This document shows, piece after piece, positions 3,505 through 39,141 of a stretch of DNA of 64,000 bases. Numbering within the stretch: the stretch's first letter is position 1; each line of letters begins with the position of its first letter. The translations under genes and the position numbers were made by a program. The stretch comes from Eledone cirrhosa. Taxonomy: Eukaryota. The notes beneath the pieces are model-generated. The model ran no database searches. It saw only the letters and a list, made by a program, of their open reading frames with translations, and was not told the DNA's origin. The stretch is taken from the NCBI GenBank assembly GCA_964016885.1, contig OZ024741.1, forward strand, positions 107,508,001 through 107,572,000. Direction: 5' to 3'.

Positions 3505-3895
3505 ATTGTTTCTACTTTTGGCACAAGGCCAGAAATTACCCCAGTGCATTACTGGTACTATATTACATCGACCTTGTAAGGATGAAAGGCAAAATTAACC
3601 ACGGCGGGATTTGAACTCAGTCTGAAAAGGGACGTAACTCTATGCTGGAAAGCATGGCATCCGACCCTCTACCGATACTGCCAATCCACCGCCCTTTATT
3701 ATTATTAATAATAATTGTTTCTACTTTTAGCACAAGGCCAGCTATTACCCCATGCATTACTGGTACTTTATTTTATCGACCACGTAAGGACGAAAGCCAA
3801 GATTAACCTCGACCGGATTTAAACTGAGACCGAAAAGGGACGTAACTATGCTGGAAAGCATGGCGTCGACCCTCTACCGATACTGCCAATCCACA
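3505..3895 (-). mobile_element. Two tandem tRNA-derived SINEs (3505-3693, 3714-3895)
   Basis: A box TGGCAGTATCGG, B box GAGTTCAAATCC, central GCCTTTCATCCT..GGTCGATAAAATAAAGTACCAG (Meta-domain-like). Confidence 0.85.
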
Positions 3896-4178
3896 ATGAT
3901 AATCGATTCAAACAGCCTCATTACGCTATGTTTTTAGATGACTATCGTCATCTGTTCGTTCTAGCAGTGGCATAGAAAAACTGTCATCATGTGTTTTGTT
4001 CTTGCCCTCAAGACCGTGTATTTCTCTGCCACTCGCTTGAATTGTTGAAAATATATATTTTCTAATGTATACATCGGCTGATTAGATTCATTCGCACACC
4101 GAGCGATTTTACCACTCGCTTTGCCGAATGTATATATATGTATGTATATATGTATATATGTATGTAAATATATATATA

Positions 4179-4213
<35 letters not shown>

Positions 4214-4218
<5 letters not shown>

Positions 4219-4657
4219 TATCCACATGACCTCTACCGACCAATCAAAATTGTTTTGACCAATAATTTTTGCTGGCGCCACTTTTCTAACATTTTAACAT
4301 AAAAACAGTCTTGGCGCAAAATCAACTTTTTACATTCACATGACCTCTACCGACCAATCAAAATTGTTTTGACCACAAGCATTTTTGCAACACAAAAATA
4401 ACGCTGGAGCCATTTTTTTAACATAAAAACAGGTAGAATTCCCAAAACTAATCAGATCAGAGCAAACAACACGGACACTCTATCTCAAAATTATTTTTGA
4501 AAAGCATTTAGAAATGCGCAACCGGTAAAAACTTAAAAACTTAAAACCACAACTGAATACTAACCCATACAATCACTAATACTCTTTTATTCCTAATTAA
4601 ACCATTTTTCAACTGTGAACAATTTGTCAGCATTTTCTATTCCGTTTACCAATATAT
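4214..4657 (+). repeat. 5' pseudo-LTR with internal ~114-bp tandem duplication
   Basis: cacatgacctctaccgaccaatcaaaattgttttgacc occurs at 4223 and 4337; the whole block recurs at 9057. Confidence 0.9.
4494..4530 (+). ncRNA. Variant minimal type I hammerhead-like motif (copies at 9337-9373 +, 11104-11140 -, 11229-11265 +)
   Basis: TTT-TTGAAAA-GCATTT ag AAATGC-GCAA-CCGG-TA-AAA. Confidence 0.6.
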
Positions 4658-4719
4658 AATAACTTGTGTGTTACACCTCTATTCTTTTAACTATCATATC
4701 CTCACACGAGATACAGAAA

Positions 4720-6030
4720 ATGCCAACAAAAACGGATACAACCCTCATCAACTCAAATGAAGAGATCCTACAGGAACTCAAGAAAATCAACACCAACCTA
4801 TCTTTGCTGGTCGACAAACTTGACTCCACAAATAAGGAAACCGCCACCGGATACAAACCCTCCGAAATCGGCGACAAACTCCAAAACCTTTGCGATACTA
4901 TCCAAACTATGTTCACTACTACCAACCCAGGAAAAACCAACGAAGAACCATGTGAGATTGATTCACACAAAATGAAAATTCGAACAATTCCAAAATGGAA
5001 CAAATCCCTCAGAGACAGAAAGTTCTCATTCTGGAAGATGATACAAAATCACAACAAAGCAGAGATATATGAAAAATGGCTTAACTCAACCCCTCTAACT
5101 CTCCCCCGTAAACTACAAATAAAGTCCATTCCAAATGAACCCGAACCTCAAAGACACCTTAGGGAAAGAATGGCATTGGAAAAAATGAAGACAGAAATTG
5201 AACTTCTTAAACTGAGGGCCCAGACAAATGAGGAAAAAATCAAAACCATCGATGAAGCGATCCTCCTGGAAATCAACAACAAAACTGAAGGCCCCAAGGT
5301 AGAGAAGATCTCCAAATTATGGAAAGGGGACTGCAACAGAGAAGAACTGAAATCCCTTCAACGCTGGGAAAAAAGTGCCGCTTGGTTCCTACACTATGAA
5401 TCGACTTTTCAAACGGATTACACCTCCAATAACCCGTTCATAAAAATAGGAAAACCCATAACTGAACCGCTCAACAACTTCTCAAACCCCCAAGCCTCAA
5501 ACAAACGAAGAAGGAAGCACCACACCGAAGATGAACTTCCCAACCTCGCTACCATAAGAAGGAACAAAAACCCAAGAAATCATCTCCCCCAGAATGACAT
5601 TTACAACTTTCCCCCTTCAAGGAGACACCATACCAAATCACTCAACTACTACGCGGATTCCTCATCGTCAAACATAGGGAAAAGATACCACCGCCATGAT
5701 AGATGCAACAACTTCCCCGCCTCAAGGGGACAGCAAGGTAATTACCATTTTCTCAACTCTCACTTCCACAATACACAACAAACCCACACCACACGATACA
5801 ACCAACAACGTAGGCCACTTATAACACCACAATACAACATGGCACATAGAAACACACACCCATACTCGCAGTACAGGAACACCCCATTCAATCTACAACC
5901 ACCAACACGAACCACATTTTACAACAACAAGGAATATAACAAACACAGGAGACCACTTAACATCAGCAGACAACCCCTCTACCCCAACCATTTTTTAGAC
6001 ACAGCACACAGATACAGGCAAACAAAATAA
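4720..6030 (+). CDS. PLE ORF1: predicted coiled-coil N-half, basic/H-N-R-rich low-complexity C-half
   Basis: Uninterrupted ORF (track 4666-6030, first ATG 4720) directly after the pLTR and overlapping the RT frame; function not recognisable. Confidence 0.75.
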   Translation: MPTKTDTTLINSNEEILQELKKINTNLSLLVDKLDSTNKETATGYKPSEIGDKLQNLCDTIQTMFTTTNPGKTNEEPCEIDSHKMKIRTIPKWNKSLRDRKFSFWKMIQNHNKAEIYEKWLNSTPLTLPRKLQIKSIPNEPEPQRHLRERMALEKMKTEIELLKLRAQTNEEKIKTIDEAILLEINNKTEGPKVEKISKLWKGDCNREELKSLQRWEKSAAWFLHYESTFQTDYTSNNPFIKIGKPITEPLNNFSNPQASNKRRRKHHTEDELPNLATIRRNKNPRNHLPQNDIYNFPPSRRHHTKSLNYYADSSSSNIGKRYHRHDRCNNFPASRGQQGNYHFLNSHFHNTQQTHTTRYNQQRRPLITPQYNMAHRNTHPYSQYRNTPFNLQPPTRTTFYNNKEYNKHRRPLNISRQPLYPNHFLDTAHRYRQTK

Positions 6031-8314
6031 CACAAGACAGGAGGAGAAACCGATAGTAATAAAAATTATCAATCTTACTAGTGCAGAACCAACACCCAAC
6101 CTTATCAACTTACTCTCCAAAGGTCTTAAATTCACACCGACCCCACTACGTCCTAACTACTATGAAATGAAGGAAGACATCACAGACTTCTGTAGAAAGT
6201 TACGACTTAGTGAACAACTATTCGACCAGTACAATGAGGATGAATCATTAGCCAGAAATAGAAGCAATTACACCCCTTCAAAAGGTAGAAATAAAATCCT
6301 GGACGAATTCTGTGAACACATCACAAACTTCCCTTACCAACACTTGCACAGACAAAAACACAAGCCAAACCTCAACAAGAAAGAATGGGAAGAATTAAAT
6401 AGATTAAAAACCGACAGAACCATTACAATTAAAGAGGCTGATAAAGGGAGTACAGTAGTCCTAATGGAGACAGAATTCTATATCAACTTAGCGCTCTCCA
6501 CTTTGGAAAACGAAACATACTACGAAAAGGCTGAACACTACAATCAACAGAAAATTATGAGAAACCTAAAAACTCTAATCAACCAATACAAAGAAGGACT
6601 CACTAACAAGGAATTCAGCTTCATCACAGACTTCACAAGTAAATCCAGCCTTTTCTACGGTATCCCTAAAGTACATAAAAGCGAATCAATCAGTAAGGCA
6701 TGCAAGGAAGCCACAGACATAGTCATCAATGTCCCCTCACCCAATGATCTCAAATTAAGACCTATAATAGCAGGCCCCGCTTGCGAAACGCACCGTCTTA
6801 GCAACTTCATTGATACCCTTCTCAAACCCTTCCTCAAGCACATCAAAAGCTATATAAGGGACGACCTAGATATGCTCAATCACCTCCCTAATATGCCACT
6901 TTCTGAACAAACCCTACTAGTGACGTTCGATGTAGTCAACCTATACTCCAACATCCCCCACAACCTAGGAATAGAAGCTATCCAATTCTGGCTGGATAAC
7001 TTCCACAATGAACTCCCACAACGCATCAAAAAAGAATTCGTGATAGAGGGACTCAAATTTATCTTGGAGAACAATTACTTCGTTTTCAATAACAAACCCT
7101 ACAGGCAGAAATCCGGGACCGCTATGGGAACGAAAACAGCCCCTACGTATGCCAACCTAGTCATGGGATACCTGGAAATCACCCTCTACACTAAAGTCCT
7201 AAACAAATTTGGAAACACCCTCCACTTACACATTGAAAGGAACTGGAAGCGATATCTAGATGACTGCTTCATCCTTTGGCACGAAAACATCGAAAAACTT
7301 AAAGAATTTCACACCCTTATAAATGGGCTCAACACAAATATTAACTTCACGATGGAATACAGCCATCAACAACTCCCCTTCCTCGACATCCTCATTAAGA
7401 TCCATAACAAAAAAATAGAAACAGACATATACTACAAGCCCACAGACTCCAAGCAATACCTCCCCTTCAACTCTTGCCACCCTAGACACGTTAAAATTAA
7501 TATTCCCTACAACTTAGCCAAGAGAATCTGTACTATAGTCTCCAATAAAAACATCTGCTACTTACGTCTACAAGAACTAAAGGACACACTCATAGGCAGG
7601 GACTACCCTGCATCACTAATTGACAATGGAATCCAACGTTCCCTAAAACTCAGTACCCAGGACCTTAGACACCCTAAAGTAAATCAACCAAAACTAAAAG
7701 CTCTTCCATACATCTCCACACACAACCCCCTCAACAACGAGGCCTTTGACACCATCCTCCAGAACATCCCTGTATTGAAAAAGGACCATAGAATGAACCA
7801 AATTCTACGAACACACGATATCATAAAGAGCAAAAGACAATCCAAGTCAATGAAAAACATCTTAACACATGCCAAAGTACTGCCAACCACAACAACGAAA
7901 CCCACAGTAAAAAAATGCGATAGACCCAACTGTGGCATTTGCATCAACCTAATAGAGGGTTCGGAATTCTATTTCAAAGATGGACAACGTTTTATAGTAA
8001 AACACAATTTCACATGTGCATCGGAAAATTTAATATATGTATTAACTTGTTCAGGTTGTCGAGAACAATACATAGGCCAGACCAAAAACAGCCTCCGCCA
8101 ACGCATGACTGTCCATAGATCCCAAATTAAAATACGGGAATACAGGAAAATACCACTGAGTGAACACATTGATACCTGCGCCGCCCAAAATCATCCCAAC
8201 TTCAGAATCTTTCCCCTCTACAAATTTAAAGATAATGCCACCCACACCCAGCGCATCAGCAAGGAATCTTACTTCATTAACAAATACAGACCCCGTCTAA
8301 ACACTTCTCCCTAA
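5999..8314 (+). CDS. PLE reverse transcriptase + GIY-YIG endonuclease
   Basis: Frame open from 5999 (IINLTS..LLSKGLKFTPTP), first ATG 6167; IKEADKG, LVTFDVVNLYSNI, GTAMGTKTAPTYANL, WKRYLDD, LPFLD, CxxxxCxxC, NLIY..C..C..YIGQT..R. Confidence 0.95.
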   Translation, partial: TQHTDTGKQNNTRQEEKPIVIKIINLTSAEPTPNLINLLSKGLKFTPTPLRPNYYEMKEDITDFCRKLRLSEQLFDQYNEDESLARNRSNYTPSKGRNKILDEFCEHITNFPYQHLHRQKHKPNLNKKEWEELNRLKTDRTITIKEADKGSTVVLMETEFYINLALSTLENETYYEKAEHYNQQKIMRNLKTLINQYKEGLTNKEFSFITDFTSKSSLFYGIPKVHKSESISKACKEATDIVINVPSPNDLKLRPIIAGPACETHRLSNFIDTLLKPFLKHIKSYIRDDLDMLNHLPNMPLSEQTLLVTFDVVNLYSNIPHNLGIEAIQFWLDNFHNELPQRIKKEFVIEGLKFILENNYFVFNNKPYRQKSGTAMGTKTAPTYANLVMGYLEITLYTKVLNKFGNTLHLHIERNWKRYLDDCFILWHENIEKLKEFHTLINGLNTNINFTMEYSHQQLPFLDILIKIHNKKIETDIYYKPTDSKQYLPFNSCHPRHVKINIPYNLAKRICTIVSNKNICYLRLQELKDTLIGRDYPASLIDNGIQRSLKLSTQDLRHPKVNQPKLKALPYISTHNPLNNEAFDTILQNIPVLKKDHRMNQILRTHDIIKSKRQSKSMKNILTHAKVLPTTTTKPTVKKCDRPNCGICINLIEGSEFYFKDGQRFIVKHNFTCASENLIYVLTCSGCREQYIGQTKNSLRQRMTVHRSQIKIREYRKIPLSEHIDTCAAQNHPNFRIFPLYKFKDNATHTQRISKESYFINKYRPRLNTSP

Positions 8315-34968: not shown

Positions 34969-37432
34969 TTCGAAATGTTAACAAATCAAAAATATTCTCA
35001 TAATCAAAATATATACTTTATTATATATATTTCAAAGGTACTATGTTGTTTTTTCAGTACGTCCTCATCAGACAAAATATATGATTTGATATATGACACA
35101 CCGCTATGGTCTTGATTATTCAATTCCAGTATTGTCAGTGATTTATTTAATCAAATCTCAACGTTTTTATACCACGAATAATATGATAAACTTAAAGAAG
35201 AAAAGGACGTAGAGCAAATTAGAGATATAAGAGGGGGTGTAAAGAAGAGGAAAGGCAATAAATAAATAAATAAATACTTTCATAAATAGATAAATGAATA
35301 CAAAAATAAATGGATGAATGAATAAAAGAAATATATAAAATAGAAAAGAGGATAACAACAAAAGAAAAGGAAGTTGTGGGGAAAGTAAACAGGAACAAAG
35401 GGGGAGTAAAGTAAAATAAAGAAAAATAAGGGAACATCGAATAGAGGGGGATAAAAAAACCGTTGTTTTCAAATGCTAGATCAAATAAGACGTCAAATCT
35501 ATTCACATAAACAATTGAATATTTCTTTATTTGATTATGTTTTAGCTAATTATATCAAAATTAATCAGTATATATTACTTTCTATAGCAATCACATATTT
35601 AGTTTAATTATACATTTATATAATTTAATTTAACTCATTATAGATTATTATAACTTTTAATTTTAAGGTAAGATATTCTATAAATATTTTGTTACAACTT
35701 TAAAAGGAGTAATCTTTAAAGCGTATTTAAATAATTATTAAATATGTATTAAAATATAATACCATGCATATATCACCATCAATACATATAATATATTTAG
35801 ATCAGTTATTACCCAAATTATTTTATTTTATTAGGATATTCACTTTATAAAATCTTTACTATTCTTTAATTTTCATTTAATTCCTAGGATTAAACTGTAG
35901 TTATATTTACTCTCAAAAGTTTTATTTCATTAATTTAATGAATGGTTATATTTACTTCTGTATTTACTTATTTTGATATATAGATTCCTTTTAATGATAG
36001 TCAATATATTATTAATCTACATATTTCATATTTAATATATTTTAGCAAGCTAGTCAAAAAGAAAATAAATTTTTACGGACAATGTAAACAAAAGGAAGAT
36101 AACTCATTCACCATATACAAACATTTATAACTAATCTCTACTCTCACGTCCAGCGATATTTCGAAAACAATAAATCGTCAATTGTAGATATCATAATTGA
36201 TGTCTAGTTAAATATTGAACTGGCCTAATTAAAGCATAGGGTAACGAGACTATTAATGAAATTATTCTAATACATATAAATATCAATTATTACCACAATA
36301 AGGCAAAACCTATATATATATTTAAATGTCAATATTTTTTCGAAACTTGTACATTGCCTGGACAGTTTTACCAATTTTATGGTGACAACTACTAAATAAT
36401 TTTTTTTTGTTGTTGATTAAATTGTCATAATTTGTAATTATCTGTAGAATCTCAAGGTTACAAAGATTGCAAATTTGCGAAATAGTTGTGTTCCGATAGG
36501 AAGCAACATTCTTTAATTTCGTCCAAGAGATGGAGTATTTAATATTATTGTCCTTTAAAGACCATACTAATTGTGAAAGTGAAGTTGAAAATTTCTTTAT
36601 TGAAAGAATGTCTATGATTATACCACCGTTCCTTAAATTTAGACTAAGTGGCACCTATGTAGTTATACTCTTTTACCTGTTTCAGCCATCCGGCTGAGGC
36701 CATGCTGGGGCACCGCCCTTGTGAATATGGAACGCTTCACGAATTTGCGTGTCATCCTTGCGCAGTTATATATAATATTATTTGTCTTAATGGTACATTT
36801 GTATACTAGATTCTTGTCAAGGCAATTATATTGTAAAGGACATTCAGACCTCTTTCTGCAATTACATTTCTTCTCAATGTTATTTACAGACCCCAAACTA
36901 TACCCATTATTATTTAAAGGTGTTCTACTATTATTCGTGTTTAAACTATTATTATCGTTATTCCCATTAACTAATGTATTGTTATTATTATTGTTATTAT
37001 TGCTAATTATAGGTTGGTTCAAATTAAGATTTTTATTATTTATTTTTGCAATATTCATAGTTGTTGAAAAGAAAGTTTAACTGTGTGTCTATTGAAGTTA
37101 GAATAATATTTATGTGACCAAAGCTTTACATAATATATGTGCTACAGGTGTTTTAATAACTTATATCACTAATTTGCACTACATCCTTTTCTTCTTTAAG
37201 TTTATCATATTATTTGTGGTATAAAAACGTTGAGATATGATGAAATAAATCACTGCCAATACTGGAATTGAATAATCAAGACCGTAGCGGTATGTCATAT
37301 ATCAAATCATATATTCTGTCTGATGAGGACGTACTGAAAAAACAACACAGTACCTTTGAAATATATATAATAAAGTAGTATATATTTTGATTATGAGAAT
37401 ATTTTCGATTTGTTAACATTTCGAATAATATT
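34963..37432 (-). mobile_element. 5'-truncated Naiad PLE with inverted pLTR
   Basis: CNCRKRSECPLQYNCLDKNLVYKC, CNLCNLE, SCHHK; 34963-35165 is the reverse complement of 37225-37432, each arm with a CTGATGA..GAAA core. Confidence 0.85.
36668..36764 (-). pseudogene. U6: U6 snRNA 3'-fragment fused to a retroposon-like 3' tail
   Basis: Minus strand TGCGCAAGGATGACACGCAAATTCGTGAAGCGTTCCATATT matches the U6 3' end (36724-36764); TSD AGTTATA at 36661 and 36764. Confidence 0.9.
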
Positions 37433-37547
37433 AAAAACTCCAGGAAAACCTAATTGTTGAGTGCTTCTAATCTATTGTAAAATTGTATTCGTTGAGTAAT
37501 CAACGAACCATACTGATCTTTGGTTCTATATATATATACACACACAC

Positions 37548-37685
<138 letters not shown>

Positions 37686-37860
37686 CGAAGGAAATGTGGT
37701 AAGGAACCAGGTGGACCATAACGCACCAAAGTACTCAATACTTAGGGTAGTAGAGTGGGTAATAGGAACAAGTAACACCCCGACGGCTGAGCTCAAGCCG
37801 TTTCGACGGCTGATTAGCCGTCGAAACGGCTTGAGCTCAGCTGTCGGGGTTTTACTTGTT

Positions 37861-37920
<60 letters not shown>

Positions 37921-38137
37921 TCGTTTTTTTCCGTTCTTTGCAAGGGGACGTTACCACGAACCAAAGTATCGTCTTCCTGTCTTCCTTCGGTGGCAACGTT
38001 TTTCGAAATATCTACTTGTGCGTTCACAGATTGATATTTTAGTTTCAGAAGATCCCGTTAAGGGTAAAAGCAGCGATACTTTGCTTAAACTTTAATCTGT
38101 TATTTTAATAAATATATATATATATATATATAGAGGG

Positions 38138-38237
<100 letters not shown>

Positions 38238-38291
38238 TAAAACATGTCTATAGAATCACAAGATATATATAAATATATATATATATATATA

Positions 38292-38354
<63 letters not shown>

Positions 38355-38555
38355 CGAAGGAATTGTGGTAAGGAACCAGGTGGACCATAACGCACCAAAG
38401 TACTCAATACTTAGGGTAGTAGAGTGGGTAGTAGGAACGAGTGGGACCCCGACAGCTGAGCTCAAGCCGTTTCGACGGCTAATTCTGGACTCCAGAATTA
38501 GCCGTCGAAACGGCTTGAGATCAGCCGTCGGGGTCCCACTCGTTCCTATATATAT

Positions 38556-38783
<228 letters not shown>

Positions 38784-39141
38784 GTGTATAGTTAACTATA
38801 AATTGATATGCTATACGGGTGGCATAGATCAAGTAGTACATTCACAGCTCTCACCTGTTCTTAATAATTACAGATTCAAAACACGTTAACGGAAAATAGG
38901 TATTTTTAGCCTCCAATCATATGATTTGACACTTGACATTTTAATCATGACACCTCAAGATATGGTTTAATACATGATTTTCTATCATCACCAATCTTAG
39001 AGCCGGAGTGGGGAATATATAATTCTATTACATGCACGATGTTAATTAATCATGACTTTCTCTTTCTTCCTTTCCTTCTCAATCTTTCTGCGCTCACACA
39101 CTCATATTTATATATATATTGTTATACTTGGGGAGGGTCAT

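Follow-up and report, generated by a model that had tools for sequence, protein, structure and literature searches.

A U6 snRNA and LINE tail chimera in a Penelope-like element of Eledone cirrhosa, and recurrence of the same tail on RNA polymerase III transcripts

How did the 3' end of a U6 small nuclear RNA (snRNA) come to be joined to the tail of a retroposon, inside the endonuclease region of another mobile element? The question is raised by a 64,000-nucleotide stretch of Eledone cirrhosa DNA (contig OZ024741.1 of assembly GCA_964016885.1, positions 107,508,001 to 107,572,000 of the forward strand). We refer to this whole stretch as the window. A first-pass annotation of the window had described a chimera of U6 and a tail other than poly(A). 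It had also allowed that the unit might belong to a short interspersed nuclear element (SINE) family with a U6 head. Here, we describe the insert, the long interspersed nuclear element (LINE) that owns its tail, and similar fusions elsewhere in the genome. Judging from sequence comparisons, we put at roughly 70% the probability of the following origin. The LINE reverse transcriptase (RT), after copying the tail, would have jumped to the U-rich 3' end of U6, and the resulting 96-nucleotide retrocopy would have landed in an old Penelope-like element.

The window insert and the LINE that owns its tail

The insert is in the minus-strand orientation and comprises 96 nucleotides (36668-36763): 40 nucleotides from the 3' end of U6, one C and a 55-nucleotide LINE tail. 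The chimera first described, with its non-poly(A) tail, is therefore borne out. The U6 part (GCGCAAGG...GTTCCATATT, 36724..36763, minus strand) is truncated at its 5' end. It matches U6 genes of the same genome over positions 65-104 with no differences, and is identical to U6 at loci L079 and L067 (L numbers denote loci elsewhere in the genome). Using cmscan in E-value mode, U6 (RF00026) was detected at 36766..36721 on the minus strand (30.9 bits, E 8.3e-06, model positions 61-105). Note that, because only the 3' portion of U6 is present, this score is below the U6 gathering score of 44; at the gathering threshold, Rfam gave no match anywhere in the window. The U6 part terminates ...CCATATT and so has two T only. 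It is in the sense orientation, and its 3' end is joined to the LINE 3' part, which has the same orientation.

Between the two parts is the extra C (36723, minus strand), at a position where the LINE has A. This base is either a non-templated addition or a tail variant; C before ACAAGGG is also present in two other chimeras, L002 and L028. The tail module (ACAAGGGCGGTGCCCC...AACAGGTAAAAGAG, 36668..36722, minus strand) is identical to the LINE 3' end in L036 and L051. In order, it is made up of ACAAGGGC, GGTGCCCCAGCATGGCCTCAGCCGGATGGCTG, AAACAGG and one TAAAAGAG unit, and it contains a 32-nucleotide core, GGTGCCCC..GGCTG. The unit terminates as LINE copies do, at a TAAAAGAG unit, which is the LINE's own 3' terminus.

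Read directly from the sequence, identical copies of TATAACT border the insert. In the orientation of the element, these 7-base pair repeats are at 36764..36770 on the 5' side and 36661..36667 on the 3' side. The bases CT, at 36765-36764, are compatible with U6 positions 63-64 and with the target alike. Hence, there is a 2-nucleotide microhomology at the 5' joint. Paralogues of the host element align to the flanks in two blocks, query 1-317 and query 414-751. In the paralogues, these blocks are adjacent, overlapping by 7 nucleotides, and precisely the 96 nucleotides are missing. In a site alignment, all 10 aligned paralogues had no insert and had TATAACT once. The 7-base pair target-site duplication (TSD) that had been proposed is thus confirmed. 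We conclude that the U6 part and the tail arrived in a single insertion event, with a real target duplication.

The same data bear on a simpler idea, that a U6 pseudogene and a separate tail-only insertion came to lie side by side by chance. Tail-only units are indeed very common, accounting for about half of the 5313 tails counted below. Against this, one 7-base pair duplication brackets both parts, and the paralogues are without exactly both. In addition, this juxtaposition recurs 40 times or more, orientation and joint being the same. For the window copy, two separate events are refuted by the empty sites in paralogues, and we give coincidence next to no weight. Being promoterless and located in a dead element, the window copy is predicted to be inert.

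Which LINE owns the tail? The 32-nucleotide core has 5313 occurrences in the genome with at most one mismatch, while the reversed control gave 0. We sampled 60 tails, being the first 61 core matches in list order (all on contig C1) with L002, a U6 chimera, omitted. Of these, 26 run at least 150 nucleotides into one common LINE 3' end, three are cut 17-65 nucleotides upstream, and 31 are the tail-only units. One of the three cut tails probably reflects an internal deletion in a LINE copy. Most sampled tails (37/60) have two TAAAAGAG units, the range being 1-4, and the 3' flank is (TA)n in 41/60.

The LINE copy at L051:3512-7093 aligns to that in L054 over 3590 nucleotides, at 97.5% identity. 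In L051, there is one open reading frame (ORF) of 1074 codons (3757-6978), with Pfam matches to Exo_endo_phos, Exo_endo_phos_2 and RVT_1. The frame in this copy has no ATG ahead of the endonuclease domain. The LINE stop codon is 12-13 nucleotides upstream of CAAGGGC, and the 3' untranslated region is about 74 nucleotides long. We conclude that the tail of the window insert belongs to an abundant 3.6-kb LINE with endonuclease and RT domains. The first-pass annotation had asked which LINE the tail came from, and had allowed that the tail might match no LINE or be simply the flank of a U6 gene. The LINE 3' end is identical to the tail, and the second possibility is addressed below.

In its architecture, the LINE appears RTE-like, given a length in the range of about 3.2-3.6 kb, a single ORF with endonuclease then RT, and a short 3' untranslated region ending in tandem repeats. 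Among 8000 scored matches, Argonauta hians provides the closest named relative, a hypothetical protein with 54% identity to the ORF. No clade name was found among 3500 homologues at E values up to 1e-10 (8000 scored), nor from Pfam, which named domains only, nor from Atlas. The FKKHLD-type motifs at the C-terminus of the ORF may recall the CR1/L2 group. An octopus element, RTE-2_OV, is treated in PMC9115989, the excerpted text of which offers no sequence for comparison.

U6 genes of the same genome provide a reference for both parts of the insert. A tandem array on contig C19 (C19:31777332-31840319) contains 33 U6 matches with a spacing of about 1.8 kb, and these are of the CTACGG..TATTC variant. 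The array genes have a TATA-like box about 30 nucleotides upstream. In L079, the gene is followed by T7 and then by sequence unrelated to the tail. Hence, U6 gene flanks do not account for the tail. Outside the array, L067, L070 and perhaps L089 resemble extra U6 genes; L067 and L070 are of the CTTCGG..TATAC variant and have TATA-like boxes.

Recurrent chimeras of U6 and the LINE tail

Is the window copy one of a kind? A genome search with the 96-nucleotide insert (240 candidates, 40 scored) gave 41 scored matches. Every one spans the joint, with 84-100% identity. Hence, besides the window copy, there are at least 40 fusions of U6 to this tail. Apart from the joint, the copies are near gap-free in alignment. 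In 32 parsed copies, U6 starts at position 1 (4 copies), 7-10 (8), 15-57 (8) or 63-85 (12). Start points range over positions 1 to 85, the pattern that 5' truncation would be expected to give. Note that the surplus of short U6 copies is due in part to the short query used.

The joints themselves vary. Taking the string from CCATA to GTGCCCC, 32 distinct versions occur among 33 copies, and at least 13 classes remain once the length of the T-run is disregarded. An exact-match pattern over the joint gave 13 matches, with 13 different strings. On the LINE side, variation is narrow. The tail starts 6 (7 copies), 7 (11), 8 (7) or 9 (2) nucleotides upstream of GGTGCC in 27/33 copies. One of the other six has its tail start 3 nucleotides from GGTGCC and five were unparsed owing to substitutions. 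About half of the joints carry additional bases (for example C, CC, G, A, CT, CTA or ATG). In nearly all copies at least four T, a terminator for RNA polymerase III (Pol III), separate U6 and tail. Finally, the array type and the singleton type of U6 (CTACGG..TATTC and CTTCGG..TATAC) are each found with both of two tail variants, GAAAC and GGAAC, so all four pairings are seen. We conclude that U6-tail units are recurrent independent chimeras with variable joints, which was one of the two outcomes foreseen for a search with the junction.

The other outcome was a SINE family with a U6 head, in which the LINE would have amplified one founder chimera by way of transcribed master copies. Dozens of copies do share the same parts in the same order, and certain joint strings are shared. 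Furthermore, snRNA-headed SINEs exist, namely SINEU, with U1 or U2 heads (PMC4494074). Such a family does not sit well with 32 distinct joints in 33 copies, falling into at least 13 classes, or with the presence of every combination of U6 variant and tail variant. The Pol III terminator, between head and tail, is a further difficulty. Note also that snRNA promoters are upstream, with no internal one reported in the excerpted text of PMC4494074. Lastly, many other Pol III RNAs bear the same tail, as described in the next section. We therefore set aside membership of a U6-headed family, which we consider improbable.

U6 is also found joined to other repeats. We examined 53 of 58 dispersed matches to a 31-nucleotide stretch of U6. 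The LINE tail described here is present in 16 of the 53 and a divergent relative of it in two. In other dispersed copies, sorted by eye, the T-run adjoins members of seven or more other repeat families, each encountered at least twice. Two tRNA-like SINEs are joined to the U6 T-run by their very 5' ends (L062; L068, L069 and L073), and in L058 and L095 U6 is joined straight to (TA)n; these, too, were read by eye.

Some copies have unusual arrangements. Locus L010 contains a head-to-head pair of U6-tail chimeras, at 1301-1398 on the minus strand and 1501-1596 on the plus strand, about 100 nucleotides apart. In L065 and L086, inverted U6 fragments are directly upstream of sense U6 copies. The inverted fragments and the L010 pair may be inversions resembling twin priming, or local inverted duplications.

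A discrete tail module on RNA polymerase III transcripts

The tail is also present on Pol III RNAs other than U6. Searching for TTTT, 0-2 nucleotides and the tail start yielded 70 matches, spread over 62 loci, compared to 0 for the reversed control. Nine of the 62 had been identified beforehand, namely 7 U6, L119 and L040. The other 53 were new, and we read the first 40 of them as listed, bringing the total examined to 49. A recognised Pol III RNA is present at 18 of these 49: 7 U6, 1 tRNA-Sec, 3 5S ribosomal RNA (rRNA) and 7 transfer RNA (tRNA). In cmscan, all of the 5S rRNA (L156/L193, L175/L197 and L181/L198) and all seven tRNA (L157/L194, L167/L195, L168/L202, L169/L203, L186/L199, L187/L207 and L185/L206) are at or above gathering scores. 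ARAGORN identifies six of the seven tRNAs, as His, Asp, Pro, Ala, Glu and Arg. As a control, 14 tail-only copies without a T-run were inspected and none had a Pol III gene upstream. ARAGORN found no tRNA at five tail-only loci.

In each of the tRNA fusions, a trailer of 4-17 nucleotides and a T-run separate the tRNA and the tail. By eye, 4-11 nucleotides 5' of each tRNA are neither (TA)n nor mature tRNA. Hence, with the trailer and an apparent leader kept, the fused sequences resemble unprocessed Pol III primary transcripts. In L119, a tail-only copy directly follows tRNA-Sec (47.7 bits), with a trailer ending TTTT; by eye, the 5' acceptor strand is missing. At L208, an 18-nucleotide duplication, again seen by eye, brackets the whole unit of tRNA fragment and tail. 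These data fit a scheme in which U6 would be one acceptor among several for the template jump.

Two further observations concern these loci. Four (L158, L160, L170 and L177) resemble 5'-truncated tRNA 3' ends, by eye only. A hairpin with a T-run, GACCC(N)TAAAAAG(N)GGGTC-TCATTTT, is upstream of the tail at two loci (L119 161-185 and L153/L201), and tRNA-Sec is recognisable upstream of one only.

What defines the 5' boundary of the tail? The 31 tail-only copies start 0-8 nucleotides upstream of GGTGCC, with 10 at CAAGGGC, 6 at ACAAGGGC and 4 at AGGGC. Over the following 140 nucleotides upstream, 5' ends occur in only 3/60 sampled copies. U6 is joined inside the same 4-nucleotide stretch where tail-only units start. 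Because the tail-only starts and the U6 joints coincide, the 55-nucleotide unit behaves as a discrete module. Three causes of the boundary are possibilities. First, it could be an RNA end, from processing or from protection of the enzyme-bound tail. Second, it could be the point where the enzyme leaves the template. Third, the GGGCGGTGCCC palindrome could snap back in the complementary DNA (cDNA). A ribosome toeprint, with the hot spot 12-13 nucleotides past the stop codon, was also considered. We leave this idea as speculation because target-primed reverse transcription is taken to be nuclear.

A broader proposal can be made tentatively. The 55-nucleotide tail may be a discrete RNA module, with a set 5' end, that acts as a universal 3' adapter. 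The enzyme, once at that 5' end, would prefer to jump to the oligo(U) 3'-OH ends of nascent, unprocessed Pol III transcripts, namely U6, 5S rRNA, and tRNA and tRNA-Sec precursors that retain leader and trailer. We think this somewhat less probable than not.

Template jump or RNA ligation

The proposed template jump would proceed as follows. The LINE endonuclease would nick a TA-rich target, here ATATA/TAACT. Reverse transcription would then begin at the (TAAAAGAG)n terminus of a tail RNA, recognised via its 3' module, as by a 'stringent' LINE. Where the module has its 5' boundary, at (A)CAAGGGC, the template would either come to an end or be abandoned by the enzyme. After adding 0-4 extra bases, the enzyme would resume copying from the oligo(U) 3' end of a Pol III transcript close by, in this case U6. 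At the window locus, copying would have halted after 40 nucleotides, and the cDNA would have been joined to the target through the CT microhomology.

Several points weigh against this explanation. Some joints recur: L018 and L029 are the same, CTA follows the T-run in 4/33 copies, and L001, L002 and L028 all have C then ACAAGGG. Hence, some copies may have a common source. The target-duplication lengths of the other chimeras are similar to those of mismatched-pair controls; because most targets are (TA)n, these duplications are not separable from chance. The two hairpins predicted for the tail do not outperform folds of shuffled sequences (z -1.6; z -0.1). One divergent tail copy, L093, has CCAGT..ACTGG, compared to CCAGC..GCTGG in others, and the tails are otherwise too alike for a covariation test. 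Lastly, the sharp 5' boundary of the tail could reflect an RNA that was cut and ligated before reverse transcription.

This last point leads to a different order of events. A cleaved tail RNA would first be ligated to the U6 3' end, and the chimeric RNA would then be copied. The ligase could be of the RtcB type, acting on a U6 2',3'-cyclic phosphate and a 5'-OH, or another ligase that joins a 3'-OH to a 5'-phosphate. Such ligation by RtcB has been shown for human U6/L1 (PMC6789731). Moreover, the very sharp 5' end of the tail (31/60 within 0-8 nucleotides), with U6 joined there, is as for a discrete RNA end. Nevertheless, cmscan found no known ribozyme at or around the boundary, with E values up to 10, in the window copy (36400-37000) or the LINE 3' end (L051:6700-7135); matches were limited to low-complexity sequences of microRNA type. 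The additional bases, at about half of the joints, fit non-templated addition. Furthermore, the module is also joined to trailer-bearing tRNAs and 5S rRNA, at terminator T-runs. Pol III primary transcripts with trailers end in a 3'-OH. Therefore, they are not substrates for RtcB, and ligation of the RtcB type is unnecessary. Hence, we consider ligation before copying unlikely, though less so than descent from a U6-headed SINE, and favour the template jump.

The host element and relation to known chimeras

The element that received the insert is a decayed copy of a high-copy Penelope-like element. From paralogue matches, ORFs and domain order, the window retains its N-rich linker and C-terminal GIY-YIG endonuclease region (36330..37080, minus strand). 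A search for the repeat gave 1745 first-look candidates, of which 40 were scored, yielding 87 matches. Uninterrupted paralogues translate as ...KNLVYKCTIKTNNNIYNYIGATSSKFKERW... and so the insert splits the GIY-YIG motif, at IYN|YIGAT, just as the first-pass annotation had stated. One paralogue, L138, has an unrelated SINE near the insertion site.

The same annotation called the host a Naiad, and here we differ. In the better host copies, of which L152 is clearest, the order is DKT, FIQMDIASY, FDITMGSSD, YRDD, an asparagine-rich linker, CNCRKRAEC and GIY-YIG. The DKT context in L152 is ...VKSDKTNN... and CNCRKRAEC conforms to CxCX5C. A single C is found between GIY and YIG in LVYKCTIKTNNNIYNYIG, and there is no CCHH cysteine pair. 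The ORF stops about 40 codons past the GIY-YIG domain, and no RT is present within 1.5 kb downstream of the endonuclease. Pfam gave no match on the host fragments. Naiads, as described in PMC8557442, have the endonuclease at the N-terminus, keep CCHH with two cysteines between GIY and YIG, and have a CX2-5CxxC linker. The same source gives the hallmarks of the Hydra clade of Penelope-like elements as a C-terminal endonuclease, a CxCX5C linker, no CCHH, and DKT replacing DKG. We rejected the Naiad label, given RT motifs upstream, a C-terminal endonuclease, DKT, CxCX5C and no CCHH. From these sequence features, we assign the host to Penelope-like elements bearing a C-terminal GIY-YIG and Hydra-type hallmarks. 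Few additional Hydra families were found in that work, across four phyla including Mollusca (PMC8557442).

Upstream of the host endonuclease, a retroposon with a (TA)n end fills 37450-38800 of the window in several copies. Elsewhere in the genome, in L078 and L085, U6 is fused to this same retroposon.

How does the window chimera compare with those described before? In platypus, there are 40 U6-L2 chimeras, mostly a 5'-truncated U6 on a short L2 piece, with TSDs of 1-9 base pairs (Doucet et al. 2015, PMC4476161). Also described there are platypus U6/Mon-1 and, in anole, U6 with L1, L2, RTEX-2 and AnolisSINE2. The chimeras of both animals are ascribed to template switching by stringent LINEs (PMC4476161). 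The units in E. cirrhosa are alike in having a sense U6, mostly truncated at the 5' end, whose 3' end adjoins a short stretch from the 3' part of a stringent LINE or its SINE, terminating in simple repeats. They are alike, too, in their small target duplications and many independent events. The window copy matches the U6-L2 description, as excerpted from PMC4476161, point for point. The differences from that account are an invertebrate host and a LINE piece that is fixed at 55 nucleotides, rather than variable. In addition, unlike the platypus and anole chimeras, the module here is also found on 5S rRNA, trailer-bearing tRNAs and tRNA-Sec.

In L1 chimeras, the point of junction varies, and the tail consists of poly(A). 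Unlike mammalian U6/L1, the LINE-side joint here is confined to 4 nucleotides, and the tail ends in (TAAAAGAG)n. The likeness is that U6 and the 3' part of an active LINE occur within one target duplication (PMC6789731; catalogue in PMC11838501). SINEU elements (Kojima 2015, PMC4494074) similarly combine an snRNA-derived 5' part and a LINE-derived 3' part. However, SINEU amplifies as families, whereas the copies here have individual joints and an internal terminator, and are therefore dead on arrival. Human pre-tRNA retropseudogenes (Schmitz et al. 2004, via PMC4476161) are likewise unprocessed Pol III precursors reverse-transcribed by LINE machinery. In E. cirrhosa, unlike in that case, a LINE tail module is attached to the precursors at their U-run. 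Finally, in the chimeric retrogenes of Magnaporthe grisea, a non-L1 LINE enzyme also makes template jumps onto small cellular RNAs; the host there is a fungus, and the partner RNAs are others (PMC2104539). In the literature searched, we found no report of chimeras between U6, or other Pol III RNAs, and LINEs in cephalopods or other invertebrates.

We conclude that the window copy is an ordinary inert fossil of a known kind of chimera, in a new host. What may be new is the fixed 55-nucleotide module and its fusion, at U-runs, to trailer-bearing tRNAs, 5S rRNA and tRNA-Sec. With this finding, U6/LINE chimeras are known beyond vertebrates, in an invertebrate whose LINE is not of the poly(A) type, and dozens of independent joints on one short, fixed LINE module become available. 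The same module is on the terminator U-runs of several classes of Pol III primary transcript. This arrangement is the one long proposed for tRNA-headed SINEs gaining LINE tails. The acquisition of SINE tails is here open to study with a defined enzyme, encoded by the 1074-codon ORF, and a 55-nucleotide RNA, and the genome-wide pattern merits a proper census. If the tail is indeed a universal adapter, this genome would preserve, in natural form, the initial stage in the birth of SINEs. It would also preserve a trace of reverse transcription occurring in the nucleus, close by Pol III transcription.

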